Assembly: GCA_963762585.1 (NCBI GenBank)
Contig: CAVXLF010000023.1
Location: 85,035-149,034, forward strand
Direction of reading: 5' to 3'
Origin: an uncultured Verrucomicrobiae bacterium
Lineage (GTDB): Bacteria > Verrucomicrobiota > Verrucomicrobiia > Limisphaerales > UBA11358
DNA: 64,000 nt
Within the stretch, counting starts at the first letter, position 1. Each line of letters opens with the position of its first letter. Position numbers and translations under genes: made by a program. Positions 1 to 9,425 of this stretch are shown in pieces. A model generated the notes under the pieces. The model did no database searches and was not told the origin of the DNA. It saw only the letters and a list, made by a program, of their open reading frames with translations.

Positions 1-306
1 ATCGGCAAACAGGCTCGCGGCTTCGAACCTCAGAAAATAGCGTTTGCCGGGTTCCCGCTGGAGATCCAGTTCGCGCCGGTACCAGCCCGGCCCGCGGTAA
101 TAATCCTTTCCCTGTTGTGCCTCCACCCAGCCCCAGTTGTGGGGAATGGCAACCGTCTGCCAGTTGGTGTCACTGAAGCTTGCCGCTTCCGCGCCCAGGA
201 TGTCACCCGGTTTGAACCGCCAGTCCGAATCCAGCAACGTGTCCTCGCGCGCAAGCGCCGGGCAGCCCAGCGCGAGCAGGGAAAGGAAAATAAAAAATCT
301 GTGCAC
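1..306 (-). CDS. Glycoside hydrolase family 2-like protein, N-terminal fragment (continues beyond window start)
   Basis: Not in ORF track (no stop inside window). Minus-strand frame ending at nt 1, GTG at 306: (M)HRFFIFLSLLALGCPALA signal-like peptide, then DSDWRFKPGD..SDTNWQTVAIPHNWGW..YYRGPGWYRRELDL..GKRYFLRFEAASLFAD, resembling the GH2 sugar-binding N-terminal block. Confidence 0.5.
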   Translation of the reverse strand, partial: MHRFFIFLSLLALGCPALAREDTLLDSDWRFKPGDILGAEAASFSDTNWQTVAIPHNWGWVEAQQGKDYYRGPGWYRRELDLQREPGKRYFLRFEAASLFAD

Positions 307-380
307 GGCAGGAATCTTGCCGGGAATTCTTTTGAAGGCAAATGCAATGTTGACGCGGTTGGTCGGGGCCGCCGATTGGG

Positions 381-788
381 TCAACGCCGCCGTTGTTTCA
401 CTTTGAGCTGGGTGGACGCGTGCATAAGCGCCGCCTGAACGCGGGCGGCTTCTTCGTCGGTGATTTTTTCCGCCAGCCGCGCCTCGGCGCGGCGCAACGC
501 CTCCTCGGCCTTCGCCTCGTCAATGTTCTCGGCGTTGATGGCCATGTCCGTGAGAATGGCCACGCGGTCGCCGGTCACCTGCACAAACCCGTCGCCGACG
601 CAGATGTAAATGGTCTCCTTGCCCTTCTGCGCGATGATTTCGCCCGCCACCAGCTGCGTCATCAACGGCATGTGTTGCGGCAGGATGCCCATTTCGCCTT
701 CGGTGCCGGTGAGGGTGACCATGTCCACGTCGTCGGAGAAGGTTTTCGCTTCCGGCGTGACAATTTCAAGTTTTATGGTCGCAGCCAT
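381..788 (-). CDS. atpC: F1 ATP synthase epsilon subunit
   Basis: 135 aa; LEIVTPE...GILPQHMPLMTQL...GDGFVQV pattern typical of epsilon; last gene of atp operon after atpD. Confidence 0.9.
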   Translation of the reverse strand: MAATIKLEIVTPEAKTFSDDVDMVTLTGTEGEMGILPQHMPLMTQLVAGEIIAQKGKETIYICVGDGFVQVTGDRVAILTDMAINAENIDEAKAEEALRRAEARLAEKITDEEAARVQAALMHASTQLKVKQRRR

Positions 789-870
789 TTTAATTCACGT
801 TTTACGTTTCACGCTTCGCCCGCACGCCAGCCTTGGCTGAAACGTAAAGCGCGAAACGTGAATCCATCCT

Positions 871-3223
<2,353 letters not shown>

Positions 3224-3229
3224 GGCCAA

Positions 3230-3802
3230 TTATCTTTTGCGACAGGTTCTGACGCGATACCGCGGCGCGGTTTCCCGGACGTGAAAACCGATCTCGCGGC
3301 GGTTTTCCGGCTTCGGCGGTTCAACCAACTGCCGGATGGCCTCAAATAAACTGGTGATGGCTTCGTCATGGCCGCTGACGCGGGTTTCCAATTCCTTCAA
3401 TTTCTGTGCGAGTTCCTTGTTGGCCGTGATGTGTTCACGCATCCAGACAAACGCACGTACGACCCGGACACTGGCTTCGACGGCCACCGGGCTGTTCAAA
3501 ACACTGGCGAGCATCAACGCGCCATGTTCAGTGAAGGCCGTCGGCAAATGACGATGTCCGCCGTGCAGACTTGAGGTCGCAAATTGCGACCTCAAGTTTG
3601 CAAGCTCTTGATGGGCAAGCTCAAACGCAAAGTCATTGGGGAATCTTTCGGCATTCCGGCGGAATTGTTCTTTTAACCGTTTCGTGGTCACGCCATAAAC
3701 CCGCGCCAGATCAAAATCCAACATAACCCGCTGCCCGCGAATCAGATAAATCATATCTTCGATCCGCAGTACCTGAGCCGCGTTGTTTTTGTAACTGACC
3801 AT
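3230..3802 (-). CDS. ORF6N (KilA-N-like) domain DNA-binding protein inserted between atpA and atpG
   Basis: 190 aa; IRGQRVMLDFDLARVYGVTTKRLKEQFRRNAERFPNDFAF...LRSQFATSS...LPTAFTEHGALMLASVLNSP..A...RAF is the ORF6N family pattern; coiled-coil tail. Visibly more AT-rich than flanks. Confidence 0.75.
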   Translation of the reverse strand: MVSYKNNAAQVLRIEDMIYLIRGQRVMLDFDLARVYGVTTKRLKEQFRRNAERFPNDFAFELAHQELANLRSQFATSSLHGGHRHLPTAFTEHGALMLASVLNSPVAVEASVRVVRAFVWMREHITANKELAQKLKELETRVSGHDEAITSLFEAIRQLVEPPKPENRREIGFHVRETAPRYRVRTCRKR

Positions 3803-3810
3803 GAAATTGT

Positions 3811-5343
3811 TCAGTGATAGGTCTGCTTGAATTCCGTGACCGCCGCCTTCAGCTCGGCCGTGAGGGCGTCGTTGATCGCCTTTTCGACGCGAATCTTCGC
3901 CAGCAAATCCGCTTTGCGGGTGTTGAGGAAGTCCGTGAATTTGGCCTGGAAATCCTTGATCTTGTCCACCGGCACGTCGTCCATGAAATTATTCTGCACG
4001 GCCCACAACACCGCCACCTGCGATTCCACGGGAAGGGGATTGTATTGCTGCTGCTTGAACACTTCCACAATGCGCTTGCCGCGTTCGAGCTGCGCCTGCG
4101 TCCGCGCGTCGAGGTCCGAACCGAATTGCGCAAACGCCGCCAGTTCGCGGAACTGGGCCAGGTCGCCCTTGATGCGGCCGGCCACCTGTTTCATCGCCTT
4201 GACCTGCGCCGCCGAACCGACGCGGCTCACGGACAAGCCGACGGAAATTGCCGGGCGCACGCCCTGATAAAACAAATCCGTCTCCAGATAAATCTGCCCG
4301 TCGGTGATGGAAATCACGTTTGTGGGAATATAAGCCGAGACGTCGCCCGCCTGGGTTTCAATGATGGGCAGCGCCGTAAGCGAGCCATTGCCGTAACTTT
4401 CCGCCACCCGCGCGCTGCGTTCCAGCAAACGGCTGTGGAGATAAAACACGTCGCCCGGATAGGCTTCGCGGCCCGACGGACGCTTGAGCACGAGCGACAC
4501 CTGGCGGTAGGCCACGGCGTGCTTGGACAAATCGTCATAGATGATGAGCGCGTCCATGCCGTTGTCCATGAACCATTCGCCAATCGCCGCGCCGGCGAAC
4601 GGCGCCAGATATTGGTTCGTGGCCGAGTCGGAAGCCGCCGCCACCACGATAATCGTGTAAGGCAGGGCGCCCGCGGCTTCGAGCACGTTCAGCACCCGCG
4701 CGATGTTCGATTGTTTCTGGCCGATGGCGACGTAAATGGAGTACAGCGGGCGGTAACTTTTGTCACCGGCCTGCTCCGCCGCCTGATTCAGCCGCGCGTT
4801 GTTGATGATGGTGTCGATGCAAATGGTCGTTTTGCCGGTTGAACGGTCGCCGATGATCAATTCGCGCTGGCCGCGGCCGATGGGAATCATCGCGTCAATG
4901 GCCATGATGCCGGTCTGTACGGGCTGGCTGACCGATTTGCGTTTGATGATGCCGGGCGCGATTTTTTCCACCGGGTAAAAACCGCTTTCCTTGATGGCTC
5001 CCTTGCCGTCGAGCGGCTGGCCCAGGACATTGACGACGCGGCCCAGCAAACCCTTGCCCACGGGCACCTGCAACAGCCGGCCGGTGGTGCGGACTTCGCC
5101 GCCCTCCTTGATTTCGGTGTAATCGCCGAGGATGATGGCGCCGACCTCGGTTTCCTCCAGGTTCAGCGCGATGCCGGTGATGCCATTGCCGAAATCCAGC
5201 ATCTCGTTAAGCATCGCGTCGGTGAGGCCTTCGATCTTGGCCACGCCGTCACCGATTTCGCGGACCACCCCGACATTTTGTTTCACCGTCGCGAGCTTTA
5301 CGCCCGCGATCTGGGCTTCAATTTCCTGCAACAGGTTGCTCAT
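3811..5343 (-). CDS. atpA: F1 ATP synthase alpha subunit
   Basis: 510 aa; GDRSTGKT Walker [13 protein letters not shown], typical alpha C-terminus. Confidence 0.97.
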
Positions 5344-5352
5344 AAGATTTTT

Positions 5353-5745
5353 TCAAAAACTTTGTGCCAATTTATCCAGCCGCGTCCGCACACTGCCGTC
5401 GTAAAGGTCGCTGCCGACCTGGATGCGCAGTCCGCCCAGCAGCGCCGGATTCTGGCGGAACGTGATGTCGGCGCCGGCGCCGTAAATTTTTTTGATTCGA
5501 TCCGCCACGCCCGTCTGCAAATCCGCGGGCAGGGAGGTGGCGCTTTCAATGCGCGCGGCATGCTGTTCCAGATCCAGTTTCACCAGCCGGTGCAGGCGCG
5601 ACAAAATTTCAACGTAACCGCGCGGTTTTTTCGCCAGCAGCAAGGTCGTGGCCTGCCGGACGCGGCTTTCATCCAGCAAACCATTCGCCTGACAACTGCG
5701 GAACAGTTGCCGGGCTTCGCGTTGCGCCAGTTTGGAGATTTTCAT
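5353..5745 (-). CDS. atpH: F1 ATP synthase delta (OSCP) subunit, unusually short
   Basis: 130 aa; position between atpF and atpA; C-terminal LLGGLRIQVGSDLYDGSVRTRLDKL matches the OSCP C-terminus. Shorter than the ~180 aa typical of delta. Confidence 0.75.
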   Translation of the reverse strand: MKISKLAQREARQLFRSCQANGLLDESRVRQATTLLLAKKPRGYVEILSRLHRLVKLDLEQHAARIESATSLPADLQTGVADRIKKIYGAGADITFRQNPALLGGLRIQVGSDLYDGSVRTRLDKLAQSF

Positions 5746-5761
5746 TCCAATTCTTTTGAGA

Positions 5762-5811
5762 TAGGGACGCCGCGCCGCGGCGTCCGGTCAGCGCCGCGCG
5801 CTGACCCTACC
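5762..5811. repeat. 50-nt double-hairpin GC-rich REP-like element (TAGGG...CCCTACC) filling the atpF-atpH intercistronic gap
   Basis: TAGGGACGCCGCGCCGCGGCGTCCGGTCAGCGCCGCGCGCTGACCCTACC: two 9-bp stems with 3-nt loops; 45/50 identical to 21897-21946. Confidence 0.85.
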
Positions 5812-5814
5812 CAT

Positions 5815-6303
5815 CTAGGCCACCAGTTGTTTTTCGGTTTCCTCCGCCAATCGCCGCTGGTCTTCCGGCGTAAGGATCTTGCCGGTGACGGTGGTGGTGG
5901 TCTGCACGACCAGCCGCCCGACTTCCCGTTTCAATTCTTCGAGCATCCGCGCGTGATCCTGCGCGGCGGCTTCGCGCGCCTTGGTGATGATTTGTTCGGC
6001 GGCGGCAATGGCCTTTTGCGTTTCGACTTCGCGCACGTGGGCGGCGGCGGCCCGCGCCTCCTCGATCATCTTGTTGGCGAGGTCGCCGGCCTGGGCCAGA
6101 ACCGCCTGGCGGTCGGTCTCGGTCTTGGCCAGTTGCGTCTTGATTTTCTCGGCGTTGGCCAGGCCATCGGCGATTTTTTCACGGCGCACCTCCAGCATGG
6201 CGAAGATCGGCCGGTAGGCAAATCTCCACAGCACGAAAAAGACGATGGAAAAACTGATCGTCTGCGCGATCAGGATCTTCCACTGGATACCTAAAGCGTC
6301 CAT
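5815..6303 (-). CDS. atpF: Fo ATP synthase subunit b
   Basis: 162 aa; N-terminal TM helix then long charged helix (AEKIKTQLAKTE...), operon position. Confidence 0.8.
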   Translation of the reverse strand: MDALGIQWKILIAQTISFSIVFFVLWRFAYRPIFAMLEVRREKIADGLANAEKIKTQLAKTETDRQAVLAQAGDLANKMIEEARAAAAHVREVETQKAIAAAEQIITKAREAAAQDHARMLEELKREVGRLVVQTTTTVTGKILTPEDQRRLAEETEKQLVA

Positions 6304-6310
6304 GGCCGGA

Positions 6311-6529
6311 TTATTTGACGACCAGCCACGCGATGACGGCCCAGCCTTCGGCGAGCGCCATGCCGACGAACATGAACGTCAGGATTTTGCCAAACATTCC
6401 CGGGTTGCGGCTCATGGCGATGACGCCACCGGCCGTGGCGATGCCGATGCCGATGGCCGCGCCGCCAAAGGCGAGACCGATGTGGACGTTGCCCTGAATC
6501 ACAGGGGCTACTGTATCTGCTAGCATCAT
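6311..6529 (-). CDS. atpE: Fo ATP synthase subunit c
   Basis: Start moved to ATGATG at 6529: MMLADTV...GLAFGGAAIGIGIATAGG...SRNPG...FVGMALAEGWAV, a two-helix c subunit with conserved carboxylate (E). Confidence 0.85.
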   Translation of the reverse strand: MMLADTVAPVIQGNVHIGLAFGGAAIGIGIATAGGVIAMSRNPGMFGKILTFMFVGMALAEGWAVIAWLVVK

Positions 6530-6591
6530 AACTTTTCTTTCAGTTGGTTTTGGTTGTCGCCCCGGCGTCCCGTGCCGGGGCAAAAAATAAA

Positions 6592-7548
6592 TCAATGGCT
6601 GTGCTGTTCATCGTTGTGCGTGCAGAGCGTGCCGACGAACGCCACGACGAGCATCGCAAACACAAACGCCTGCACGATGCAGACGAAGGTTTCGTAAAAA
6701 TAGGTAAACGACGATAGCAGCAGCGACAGCAGGAAATGATTGTGGAACTCCATGTCCAATATGCTTTCGCCGGCATAAATATTCCCGTAAAGGCGCATCG
6801 CCAGCGCCACCGGCCGCGCAAATCCCACGGAAAGCAATTCCATCGCGCCGATGAACAGGAACAGCAGAAAGAACAGCGGATAGGTCCATTTGTTGGTGTC
6901 CATCTTCACGCCGAAGATGTGTTTGATCAGCCCCCAAAAACCGTTGTACCGCACCGCCCAGAACAGGCTCATCACCAGAAATATCCCGGCCATCACGATC
7001 GTCAGATTCGCGTCGGTTGTCGGCGGGCGGAAGAACGGTGTGAACTGTCCGTGATGATAAGACCCGATGCTGCCGACGCCCGGGACCAGATCCACCAGGT
7101 TCGACATGACGATGAAAATGAAAAACGTCGTGGCAAACGGAAAAACCCAGCGCGCCACACGCTCGTCCAGAATGTCGCCGATCAGGCCTTCCCACGCTTC
7201 CACCAGCGATTCCATCACGTTCTGCATTCCCGATGGGACTTCCTTGACGCCCTTCCACGTCGTCAGGCGGACAATGGTTAAAATGACGGCCGCGACAATC
7301 CAGGTGCAAATCATCGAGTTCGTCACCGGCAATCCCAAAACCGTGAACAGCGTCGGCGCGCCGGACGGAACCACTTCTGCCGCCGGTTCGGCGGTTGGCG
7401 CCGTGGCCGTCGTGTTTGCCGCGCTGGAAATGGCTCCTCCCGGCGGATGGCCGGGGGCGGATGGCGAAGAGGGCTGCGCGTCCACTGCCACCGCGAAAAT
7501 CGCGGCGAGGAACACACCGGCTAAAATAATTGTGCCGAATCGCTTCAC
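6592..7548 (-). CDS. atpB: Fo ATP synthase subunit a
   Basis: Conserved C-terminal LAMRLYGNIYAGE...FVFAMLV; likely GTG start at 7548 (AAGGAAG about 9 nt upstream) giving a signal-like N-terminus followed by a Pro/Ala/Ser-rich stretch; longest ORF runs to 7653. Confidence 0.85.
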   Translation of the reverse strand: MKRFGTIILAGVFLAAIFAVAVDAQPSSPSAPGHPPGGAISSAANTTATAPTAEPAAEVVPSGAPTLFTVLGLPVTNSMICTWIVAAVILTIVRLTTWKGVKEVPSGMQNVMESLVEAWEGLIGDILDERVARWVFPFATTFFIFIVMSNLVDLVPGVGSIGSYHHGQFTPFFRPPTTDANLTIVMAGIFLVMSLFWAVRYNGFWGLIKHIFGVKMDTNKWTYPLFFLLFLFIGAMELLSVGFARPVALAMRLYGNIYAGESILDMEFHNHFLLSLLLSSFTYFYETFVCIVQAFVFAMLVVAFVGTLCTHNDEQHSH

Positions 7549-8081
7549 GCAAATAACTTCCTTCAGTCCACACGGATTGCCTGTTTGGTCAAACCGGATT
7601 GCGGGCCTCAAAGTCAAAAAGAATGCCTCGTCGTGAAAAAATTCACAAGCCAATTTTGGCCATTTTTCGACAGCATTTTGGCTGGTTTGAGTGTTAAAAG
7701 CACTCCTGGCGCAGCGATTCCGGCGTTTTCCCGGCGGCGCGCAGTGTTCGCAGGCTCAAGGCATCGCGGTGTTTGCCCGATTGTATTGCCGGATTGAAGT
7801 TTGTGGCCAAGCTTTTGTCAGCCGCTTGCCGGCCTAATTATTAATCACGATCCCGGCCCTCCAATTAAGCCCAAAAGCCGCAATCGAATGTTCAGGGACT
7901 CAGTGAGTGTAGTGAGTGTCGCTTTGCCCCAATGGCGAAATTGCCGCCAGATTCGGAATGTGCTTCACCATACCCGTTCGCGAGGCCATAAATTCGCCTC
8001 CATTTTCCATGCTGCCTTTCCACCCCAAAAGTCCCTGCCGCGAAATTGAAGAAAGGCCACCCCCGTTTTTCATGCCGATCG

Positions 8082-9425
8082 TCATACCGTGGGTGCAGGA
8101 TGTTGCGGCTCCGCCGGTGCAAGTTGTGACTCTGCCGTTCCCGTCGGCTGCGGCAGGTGCCTTTTGATCAGGTGCATTACCGCCTTGACGGCCAATTCAA
8201 TCGGCAGGAACGGCTTGGCAATGAGATCGTCGCCGCCGCTCAAAACCCCCTTGGCGCGGCTTTCAAAATCATTGTGGACGGTGACGTAGATCACGGGGGT
8301 TTTCTCATAGCCGGGAATGGCCCGCAATTTCCGGCAAAACTCGTAACCGTTCATCAGCGGCATTTCGATATCGAGCAGAATCAGCTCGTAATTTGTTTCT
8401 TTCAGCAGCTTCAAGGCCTCCAGCGGATCTTTCACGCCGTTGGCCTGGAGATGTGCCCGCTGGAGCGCGAAGATGGCGACGCGATTGGTGACCGCGTCGT
8501 CGTCCACAATCATGACCTTGCTGACCAACGGCTCTTCGACCGATGGCTCGCGCGCCAGGGCAAAAAGCACTCCCATAAAATCCAGGGTCATGGCGATTGT
8601 GCGCAGGCTGGACGGCGTGATGAGGTCCGGCGTGCGTTGCAGCTCGAACAACAGGGCTTCGAATACACCACTGAGCAGTGCGATGTAATGGAACCTGGCC
8701 AGGCCGGTAATGGCGGTGACGAAGTGCACCTTGCGATAAAGAGCGTCGAGCCGCTCCCCGCGCGTCTTTAGGTCCGGACTCTTTCTGAACGCCCGATAAA
8801 GCTCGCGCAAATCCACAATGATGGAGGGCGCGTCCCTGAGAAAATCCTGGCGGCTCTTGATGCTGGAACTCATTTCCACGGCTTCCAGATCGTGCTCGGC
8901 CTGCTTCAACCCGGCGGGGGCCGTGGGCGACTCGATTTTTCTGGCGGCCGTCGGATCCTTGATCAGCAGGTCATTCGCGACGGCAATCAATTTGGCGGGG
9001 TTACACTCGGCCTTGATGACGGTTTGCTGGACGCCGATCTCAATGGCGGCTTGTGCCAGCTCATCCATGAACGCATTGGTGAAGATGGCGACCGGTATGG
9101 AGCGCAAACGGGCTTGTGAACGGAGGAATTTCAACACGTCCACTCCCGAAAGTTTCGGCATCATCAAATCCAACACCACGAGGTCAGGCTTGTCCGCCTG
9201 CAACAGTTCCAGCGCATTCAAGCCATCCGTGGCGGTGGCCACGCTGAAACCATATTGAGCGAGCCTTTTTCCATAAATGGCCCGGATCACTGCGTCATCA
9301 TCCACCAGAAGAATTTTTTTCGGCAGTTGCCCGGGAGGCCCTGCCTCGGGCGACTCCACCGGCGCAGCCGGCGGCGTGGTGGTTCGCGTCTCGTTCACCG
9401 GCGCTTTGTTTCTCATCGTTTTCAT
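8082..9425 (-). CDS. Dual-receiver response regulator with central helical (tentatively Hpt-like) domain
   Basis: REC1 KILLVDDD...DLVVLDLMMPKLSG...; REC2 KVMIVDDD...ELILLDIEMPLMNG...DDLIAKP; central segment RKVHFVTAITGLARF resembles the H-x-x-K-G-S-A Hpt helix. ATG 9425 (MKTMRNK) preferred over 9506. Confidence 0.8.
   Translation of the reverse strand: MKTMRNKAPVNETRTTTPPAAPVESPEAGPPGQLPKKILLVDDDAVIRAIYGKRLAQYGFSVATATDGLNALELLQADKPDLVVLDLMMPKLSGVDVLKFLRSQARLRSIPVAIFTNAFMDELAQAAIEIGVQQTVIKAECNPAKLIAVANDLLIKDPTAARKIESPTAPAGLKQAEHDLEAVEMSSSIKSRQDFLRDAPSIIVDLRELYRAFRKSPDLKTRGERLDALYRKVHFVTAITGLARFHYIALLSGVFEALLFELQRTPDLITPSSLRTIAMTLDFMGVLFALAREPSVEEPLVSKVMIVDDDAVTNRVAIFALQRAHLQANGVKDPLEALKLLKETNYELILLDIEMPLMNGYEFCRKLRAIPGYEKTPVIYVTVHNDFESRAKGVLSGGDDLIAKPFLPIELAVKAVMHLIKRHLPQPTGTAESQLAPAEPQHPAPTV

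Follow-up and report, generated by a model that had tools for sequence, protein, structure and literature searches.

An old ORF6N-family gene in the ATP synthase operon of Verrucomicrobiota and its intragenic palindrome, a putative self-operator

The ORF6N gene and its product

The stretch of DNA described here, 64,000 nucleotides from an uncultured Verrucomicrobiae bacterium (GenBank assembly GCA_963762585.1, contig CAVXLF010000023.1, positions 85,035 to 149,034) and hereafter called the window, carries an F1Fo ATP synthase (atp) operon with a gene of the ORF6N family at the junction of atpA and atpG. This gene is a minus-strand open reading frame (ORF) at 3230–3802, which encodes 190 amino acids (aa), starts with ATG at 3802 and ends with TAA at 3232–3230; it was delimited by the ORF call and is supported by the PF10543 profile, the PDC-S05 models and the ratio of nonsynonymous to synonymous substitution rates (dN/dS), and its coding sequence contains a perfect palindrome at 3569–3597. 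The gene order on the minus strand is atpB-E-F-H-A-ORF6N-G-D-C, where each gene was confirmed by Pfam: atpB (6592–7653), atpE (6311–6595), atpF (5815–6303), atpH (5353–5745), atpA for the F1 alpha subunit (3811–5343; ATP-synt_ab_N, ATP-synt_ab, and ATP-synt_ab_C), atpG for the F1 gamma subunit (2339–3223; ATP-synt, E=2e-89), atpD (871–2325), and atpC (381–788). On the coding strand the TGA of atpA is followed by the 8-nt spacer ACAATTTC (3803–3810, minus strand) and then by the ORF6N ATG, and the ORF6N TAA is followed by the 6-nt spacer TTGGCC (3224–3229, minus strand) and then by the atpG ATG at 3223, a start that is kept in all homologues (80 loci). Because spacers of 8 and 6 nt leave no room for a promoter, the gene appears to be expressed from the atp transcript, with its translation probably coupled to that of atpA; the scan revealed no promoter-like or terminator-like site at either junction.

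The GC content of the gene is 53.8%, while size-matched coding chunks of the window gave 60.4 ± 2.6% and 0 of 500 such chunks were as low; the GC content at third codon positions (GC3) is 0.62 versus 0.70–0.81 in the atp genes. A protein of 99% identity in the identical arrangement was present on at least 23 contigs of independent JGI and ENA assemblies, so that an assembly artefact, which the preliminary description of this DNA had named as an alternative, is ruled out. The lineage with the atp-embedded gene is represented by Verrucomicrobiota metagenome-assembled genomes of soil or peat metagenomes. The repeat search found no repeats bracketing the gene, no recombinase, integrase or transposase was present among the ORFs beside it, Rfam gave no match across 200–8200, and no ORF6N paralogue, for which the preliminary description had proposed to look, was present elsewhere in the window. 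The other statements of that description were borne out at this level: the domain assignment, the atpA–atpG position in an operon of the order B-E-F-H-A-G-D-C, the tight packing read directly from the sequence, the higher AT content once GC was computed, and, as a reading of the spacers, co-transcription with probable translational coupling.

The PF10543 (ORF6N) profile matched residues 17–101 of the protein (3500–3754, minus strand) at E=1.6e-34 and covered profile positions 2–86 of 86, scoring 118.5 bits where the gathering score is 27.8. The family motifs RGxxVMLDxDLAxxYG, RFPxDFxF, and FTExG, the length of approximately 170–200 aa, the C-terminal helices and an I-G-F motif (alignments A1, A3, and A5) likewise place it in the ORF6N family. 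Within this set the I-G-F motif (residues 171–173; 3284–3292, minus strand), after which a basic tail follows, is invariant among the atp-embedded proteins (alignment A1) and also conserved across the diverse alignment A3. Homology to known F1Fo subunits or assembly factors (a, c, b, delta, alpha, gamma, beta, epsilon, AtpI/AtpZ) was not found by Pfam and NCBIfam, ORF6N being the sole assignment, and in NCBIfam the protein had a single sub-threshold coiled-coil match.

The Pfam ORF6N family belongs to the KilA-N/Bro-N/antirepressor superfamily, which was reportedly described by Iyer, Koonin and Aravind in 2002. With 50 close homologues AlphaFold2 reached a predicted local distance difference test score (pLDDT) of 42, and the model used was therefore that from 105 more diverse homologues, with a mean pLDDT of 76 and values of 82–93 over most of the domain. 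It consists of a β-hairpin (residues 18–28), a helix-turn-helix-like helix pair (29–49), and strands 59–61 and 88–90 flanking helix 64–74 with a low-confidence loop 75–87, followed by two long helices (105–142 and 147–160) and a disordered basic tail. The helices of residues 105–160 (3323–3490, minus strand) are probably a coiled-coil dimerisation region according to the model, and designed coiled coils were the sole PDB profile matches to this part. Foldseek comparison of the model with viral models retrieved KilA-N, antirepressor, and Bro-N proteins at E=1e-5 to 1e-3, including KilA-N DNA-binding domain proteins in BFVD (E=1.3e-5, probability 1.0), which agrees with the superfamily fold; solved structures gave no significant match in PDB sequence, profile, and fold searches (best fold match E=0.96). 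The sequence is similar to antirepressors, since phrog_4792 (E=4.8e-25) and nine more PHROG families labelled as anti-repressor or transcriptional regulator were matched, and in GenBank phages four records matched the protein, all of them weakly. The protein is real, conserved and of KilA-N type, and is predicted to bind DNA sequence-specifically, as indirectly suggested by the conserved palindromes within and beside the genes.

Three hidden Markov models of PDC-S05, a single-gene candidate defence system of PADLOC, also matched, PDLC04869 (9.6e-52), PDLC04856 (3.6e-51), and PDLC04849 (6.6e-35), the best of them nearly at full length on a model of 177 positions. Relatives outside atp operons are tightly packed between hsdM and hsdS of type I restriction-modification (R-M) operons (L127, L137, L140, and a Treponema plasmid; L numbers denote loci and P numbers homologous proteins), lie beside integrases in a Bacteroides element, adjoin ETF-QO, or are carried by plasmids and integrative and conjugative elements. 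The phage and mobile-element habit that the preliminary description ascribed to the family is thus confirmed by the PHROG labels and by these locations; unlike these relatives, the gene of the window is chromosomal, lies within an F1Fo operon with atp genes on both flanks and not in a phage or prophage regulatory module, has no phage or mobile genes nearby, and has been inherited vertically for a long time. As a separate observation, L258:4001–5802 contains two nearby ORF6N genes among HigB/helix-turn-helix toxin-antitoxin pairs and adjoins umuD/umuC-like genes, being a further case of the ORF6N family among selfish genes.

The palindrome within the coding sequence

The perfect palindrome at 3569–3597 (no strand assigned; inverted repeat I2) has the form ACTTGAGGTCGCAA-A-TTGCGACCTCAAGT, that is, arms of 14 nt around the centre base 3583, which is the first base of codon F74, and it reaches 3564–3602 with one mismatch. 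It encodes N-LRSQFATSS-L, in which LRSQFATSS is a conserved motif, and 0 of 300 synonymous shuffles reach its arm length. The predicted hairpin has an energy of -18.7 kcal/mol as DNA (z=-5.7) and of -31.1 kcal/mol as RNA (z=-6.6). The palindrome does not have the properties of an intrinsic terminator; the scan for terminator-like sites did not list it, and the sequence following it is GTCTGCAC.

The homologous position was located in 180 ORF6N genes of genome, metagenome, and viral contigs, and a palindrome was present there in all 180. These palindromes span 27–39 bp and are centred on codon 74, the same codon position being used in at least six phyla; perfect arms of 11–19 nt occur in 81 genes and arms with one or two mismatches in the remaining alignable genes. 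The mean perfect arm is 10.0 nt compared with 3.7 nt in synonymous-codon shuffles, the observed arm beats all 300 shuffles in 69 of 125 unique genes, and Watson-Crick pairs occupy 95% of arm positions 1–12. The covariation set comprised 104 unique regions of 35 nt; in 14 of the 16 arm pairs both partners vary, with 220 double-change cells against 81 ± 13 in shuffles (reached in 0 of 500) and a covariation score of 0.35 against 0.07–0.12 in slid controls; the most variable pair is G:C in 74 and A:T in 28 of the 104 sequences, without intermediates.

The base pairing leaves its trace in the protein as amino-acid covariation (S-A, S-V, F-G, C-G, Y-G, and L-A); the regular-expression count of the residue-72/75 pair in 350 proteins was noisy through mis-anchoring, and the usable classes were S-A, S-V, F-G, C-G, and Y-G. 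In one subfamily (L151, L156, L162, and P0255) the core GGTCGCAAATTGCGACC is read in another frame and gives EVVANCDHLS, and a Treponema gene has K at the site of the otherwise invariant Q, together with a compensating base change (GGTCGAAAATTTCGACC). The palindrome is also found in plasmid genes of Legionella, Sulfuricurvum, and Bacteroides, in the last of these in tandem, while a Butyrivibrio plasmid has it upstream of the ORF6N gene. The encoded residues form the end of a surface helix and a loop which are of low confidence and variable length in the AlphaFold2 model, and such a location would suit a DNA element accommodated where the protein is permissive. These data show that the palindrome is conserved at the nucleotide level independently of the encoded peptide; it is probably a DNA site acting in cis, and the dimer of the ORF6N protein is the most likely candidate for binding it.

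In at least 22 distinct loci a solo copy of the palindrome precedes the start codon by 5–35 nt, approximately 240–260 bp from the internal copy; among these loci are the atp-embedded L008, L018, L025, L029, L093, L095, and L109. In several genes, including L074, L098, and L253, the palindrome is duplicated in tandem and in frame at a distance of 27–60 nt. The palindrome is present in a single copy in the 64-kb window, where half-sites are not above chance and no regulon was recognised, and in about 0.9 Mb of related atp neighbourhoods its copies are confined to the ORF6N gene or its junction; it does not behave as a dispersed repeat of the type of repetitive extragenic palindromic sequences, bacterial interspersed mosaic elements or Rickettsia palindromic elements (REP/BIME, RPE-like) in either data set. 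In addition, L158 contains an ORF6N gene (4001–4516) that is preceded by a solo palindrome and separated by about 2.4 kb from an oppositely oriented atpD-atpC pair (6942–8171).

Residence in the atp operon

Scanning of species-representative genomes with atpG resulted in 80 Verrucomicrobiota atp loci, 75 of them with an intact atpA–atpG junction, and an ORF6N homologue was located at this junction in 7 of the 75 (L007, L008, L018, L025, L029, L053, and L074), whereas L001–L006 are empty sites. Among metagenome sequences the best 20 matches (58–82% identity) were all arranged as atpA-ORF6N-atpG, and every homologue of 58–99% identity had this arrangement; the four homologues checked directly (P0003, P0017, P0097, and P0136; 66–89% identity) were all at the atpA–atpG junction. 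The spacers are exactly 8 nt and 6 nt in homologues of 73–89% identity, the length of 8 nt recurring in L081–L090 and L259–L264 and that of 6 nt in homologous loci. In the comparison with related operons that the preliminary description had proposed, the gene thus occupies the identical junction in many Verrucomicrobiota and is present in a minority of the species-representative loci.

The neighbour-joining tree of atpA+atpG comprised 79 loci, 17 of which have the ORF6N gene; these are scattered across both deep clades, one Limisphaerales-like and the other Chthoniobacterales-like, and the ORF6N tree contains the same two major clades. The ORF6N distances correlate with those of atpA+atpG (Mantel r=0.76, p=2e-4), and between the window and L081 the synonymous divergence (dS) is 0.60 for ORF6N, 0.57 for atpA, and 0.58 for atpG. 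The dN/dS ratio of the ORF6N gene is 0.09–0.21, similar to that of atpG, which shows that the gene is under purifying selection. GC3 is below that of the flanking genes in all 31 atp-embedded copies with a mean deficit of 0.15; low GC is therefore a constant trait of this gene rather than a scar of transfer.

Several ORF6N-less operons retain relics of the gene in the atpA–atpG spacer (L068, L027, L012, and L039), which indicates ancestral presence followed by repeated loss. The spacer of L068 still encodes ELQNLRSQFATSNNVGA (E=7e-4), and in L027 the sole remnant is the palindrome that precedes the gene in L018. The spacer L012:5927–6000 contains a 19-codon mini-ORF, MPNDQTKTAPPHLIKAQKRL, whose end KTAPPHLIKAQKRL aligns, as a weak match, with the ORF6N C-terminus; with the start, the C-terminal end, and the stop-to-atpG spacer retained, it looks like an internally deleted ORF6N gene. 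The appearance of this mini-ORF is as if a translational relay to atpG had been preserved after the loss of the protein. Recombination or gene conversion within the cassette is indicated by the mosaic gene of L083 (5001–5570): compared with L081 (5001–5573) its atpA and atpG are nearly identical (atpA dN 0.009), the ORF6N proteins differ by 26%, and the middle of the L083 ORF6N resembles L008.

The simplest history is one ancient acquisition with vertical descent, repeated loss, and some recombination. It follows from the data above that the gene entered the atpA–atpG junction early in Verrucomicrobiota, has been inherited with the operon and repeatedly lost, and is a long-term hitchhiker rather than a new insertion. 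The preliminary description offered an insertion, here taken in the sense of a recent mobile event, and, as the contrary case, an ancient operon member conserved across the phylum with host-like composition; the former is contradicted by the shared junction, co-divergence, matching dS, purifying selection and the lack of repeats or a recombinase, and the latter is largely right as to the age of the resident and wrong as to its distribution, which is patchy and not phylum-wide, and its composition, which is not host-like. Neither the marks of a recently inserted mobile element (terminal repeats, target-site duplication, recombinase) were found, the empty sites L001–L006 notwithstanding, nor the lineage-wide presence of a conserved F1Fo operon component (7 of 75 loci; 17 of 79 in the tree).

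Other peculiarities were noticed in the atp operons compared. Genes for ParE toxins (PF05016, E=1e-16 to 5e-20) lie between atpG and atpD in L027:1262–1567, L030:1209–1514, and L056:4028–4524, the last with an additional antitoxin-like ORF upstream; at the same junction L029, which also has ORF6N, carries a lone antitoxin-like ORF (6926–7189), and L014:3732–4364 holds a gene for a 210-aa S-adenosylmethionine-dependent methyltransferase-like protein (Methyltransf_11, E=1e-8). With regard to the toxin and antitoxin genes, the Verrucomicrobiota atp operon seems to be a site where selfish genes repeatedly land. In seven loci (L031, L032, L042, L044, L049, L057, and L080) atpD was not detected in the approximately 3.6–6 kb fetched downstream of atpG, and here the operon seems to be divided or interrupted beyond atpG. 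The product of atpH in the window and in all related loci has 130 aa and covers positions 52–171 of the 172-position Pfam profile, so that it lacks the usual N-terminal part; a link of the ORF6N gene to this short delta subunit was considered and rejected, since the 130-aa atpH occurs in loci with and without ORF6N.

A putative self-operator and its alternatives

The overall best explanation, with a probability of roughly 0.55, is that the gene is an old, selected hitchhiker and the palindrome its putative portable self-operator. According to this proposal the gene would have no promoter of its own and would be expressed by way of the atp transcript and of translational coupling to atpA; the protein would dimerise via its C-terminal helices, and the dimer would bind the internal palindrome and, in other loci, the solo copies upstream of the start codon, so that a promoter-less cassette could limit its own expression in any host operon. 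The benefit for the cell would perhaps be an antiphage or anti-mobile-element activity, an assumption weakly suggested by the PDC-S05 match, the protection of E. coli by one representative, and the occurrence of the same palindromes in viral contigs. In the work cited, a PDC-S05 representative with a RhuM domain lowered the plating of T7 and T5 approximately 1000-fold in E. coli B (bioRxiv 10.1101/2024.09.26.614923). A broader and distinctly more tentative view is that ORF6N genes are self-recognising cassettes, which carry their predicted target palindrome in their own reading frame, may autoregulate in any context and may serve PDC-S05-type defence; it would accommodate the conservation of the site as DNA even where the reading frame has shifted.

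Several known systems have features in common with this arrangement. The operators lac O2 in lacZ and gal OI in galE are auxiliary operators within coding regions, and in the ORF6N loci with solo copies there is likewise an upstream site and a second site in the coding sequence downstream; in contrast to lac and gal, the internal site lies in the gene of the putative regulator itself and encodes a conserved peptide, the clade of the window has the internal site alone, and binding is here a prediction. Type I R-M operons hold embedded accessory genes, for example, PrrC, Fic, and RhuM, which the small, tightly packed, promoter-less ORF6N gene with its predicted read-through expression resembles, although its host operon is a core bioenergetic and not a defence operon. 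The Rickettsia palindromic elements are in-frame palindromic inserts; the ORF6N palindrome is also translated in frame, tolerates duplication and occurs in unrelated ORFs, but it is not dispersed in the window, has a fixed position across a protein family, and retains its core across phyla. As to PDC-S05, the likeness consists in the three matching models (best E=1e-51) and in relatives wedged between hsdM and hsdS, as is usual for defence-island genes, while the tested representative has a Virulence_RhuM domain and the gene of the window has no defence neighbours.

A number of points weigh against the self-operator proposal. The 21-nt core pattern GAGGTCRCAAWTTGYGACCTC has 70 sites in IMG/VR, of which 20 are in ORF6N genes and 3 have ORF6N elsewhere in the locus; 13 are solo TTGA..TCAA-type sites, mostly intergenic, 28 are flanked by A and T tracts in the manner of bidirectional terminators, and the remaining 6 have neither type of flank, with no ORF6N in the fetched stretch in these three groups. 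The terminator-like viral sites (L265–L333, e.g., L266:10343–10363 and L283:5416–5436) come in many cases from related contigs. Because of the core sites outside ORF6N genes, the palindrome is associated with these genes and not exclusive to them. The clade of the window has no upstream copy, and, contrary to expectation, the upstream palindrome proved no closer to the internal one of its own locus than in shuffled pairings (0.79 versus 0.77, p=0.19). The ORF6N protein is no more than a candidate for the factor recognising the palindrome; a roadblock inside the gene would have polar effects on atpG, atpD, and atpC, seemingly at a high cost; template-switch correction rather than selection could keep the symmetry perfect; and the defence-tested PDC-S05 representative, with its RhuM domain, has another architecture (bioRxiv 10.1101/2024.09.26.614923).

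Among the rival explanations the first place belongs to an RNA hairpin acting in mRNA processing or stability, in translation pacing, or as a translational operator. The predicted energy of the RNA form, the adjacency of solo copies to the ribosome-binding region, and the resemblance of viral core copies with A and T tracts to bidirectional terminators speak for it; nevertheless, it is unlikely, as among 1332 cells of arm positions 1–12 there are 11 sense G·U pairs, 20 antisense ones, and 36 other mismatches, so G·U is not tolerated, and at the most variable pair G·U is found in 0 of 104 sequences, though S(TCG) with V(GTG) would make an acceptable protein. G·T pairs are no better tolerated than other mismatches, which indicates DNA symmetry over a sense-strand RNA hairpin, there is no Rfam match, and in ORF6N genes the hairpin is not followed by a U tract. 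Next in order is a selfish or recombinogenic DNA element, such as an in-frame insert like the Rickettsia elements or a recombination site, kept perfect by template-switch correction and with no role for the protein. This would be in accordance with the tandem in-frame duplicates, the solo intergenic copies, the L083 mosaic, and the in-frame palindromes within unrelated viral ORFs (L312:~6511, L317:~250, L319:~1732, and L321:~1739), where a helicase-like protein of 412 aa has FLKSQFATSK encoded by the palindrome and a protein of 347 aa has EVTNCDLK from the other frame. Such an element is rather improbable in view of the constant codon position in at least six phyla, the single copy in the window with none dispersed in the atp neighbourhoods, the lack of any recombinase associated with the palindrome, and the consistent distance of solo copies upstream of the start codon.

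Co-option of the protein for the ATP synthase itself, whether to regulate atp transcription or to set the ratio of upstream to downstream subunits, is regarded with equal doubt. Long retention under purifying selection, the tight coupling to atpA and atpG, and a palindrome inside the transcription unit would suit this function; however, L001, the nearest sister, lacks the gene, as do 68 of 75 related species genomes, and it was repeatedly lost; its relatives reside in unrelated operons (hsdM-hsdS, next to ETF-QO), and neither the surroundings of the atp promoter nor the rest of the window has an extra palindrome or half-site, nor was a further palindrome found in the related atp neighbourhoods. 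The last alternative, a recent insertion of the gene by a phage or another mobile element, is essentially excluded: the GC and GC3 values below those of the flanking genes and the family's habit of mobile elements and defence islands point in its direction, but dS matches the flanks with which the gene co-diverges, diverged relatives have exactly the same spacers, neither flanking repeats nor an integrase or transposase accompany the gene, the GC3 deficit is common to all 31 atp-embedded copies, and no more than the four GenBank phage records match the protein.

In summary, the ORF6N family and the PDC-S05 candidate system were already known, while searches of the literature on ORF6N, KilA-N palindromes, and Verrucomicrobia atp operons found no prior description of the present observations; the stable residence of such a gene in the ATP synthase operon of a bacterial lineage and the family-wide intragenic palindrome in two frames are absent from the literature searched. 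If the long residence holds, one of the most conserved operons in biology has accommodated a foreign gene for a DNA-binding protein over a very long period throughout a bacterial lineage, which bears on how selfish or defence genes gain constitutive expression. The dual coding would be striking, with a nucleotide element conserved across phyla within coding sequence and in two frames, and amino-acid covariation that arises from base pairing and not from protein contacts could mislead contact prediction and annotation. Self-recognising cassettes, if real, would explain the life of the family inside atp and hsd operons, and a host copy could bind matching sites of invading phages and elements. 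The conserved and easily synthesised 27-bp palindrome would be a directly testable candidate ligand for the large Pfam family ORF6N, which abounds in metagenomes and is listed as the defence candidate PDC-S05.

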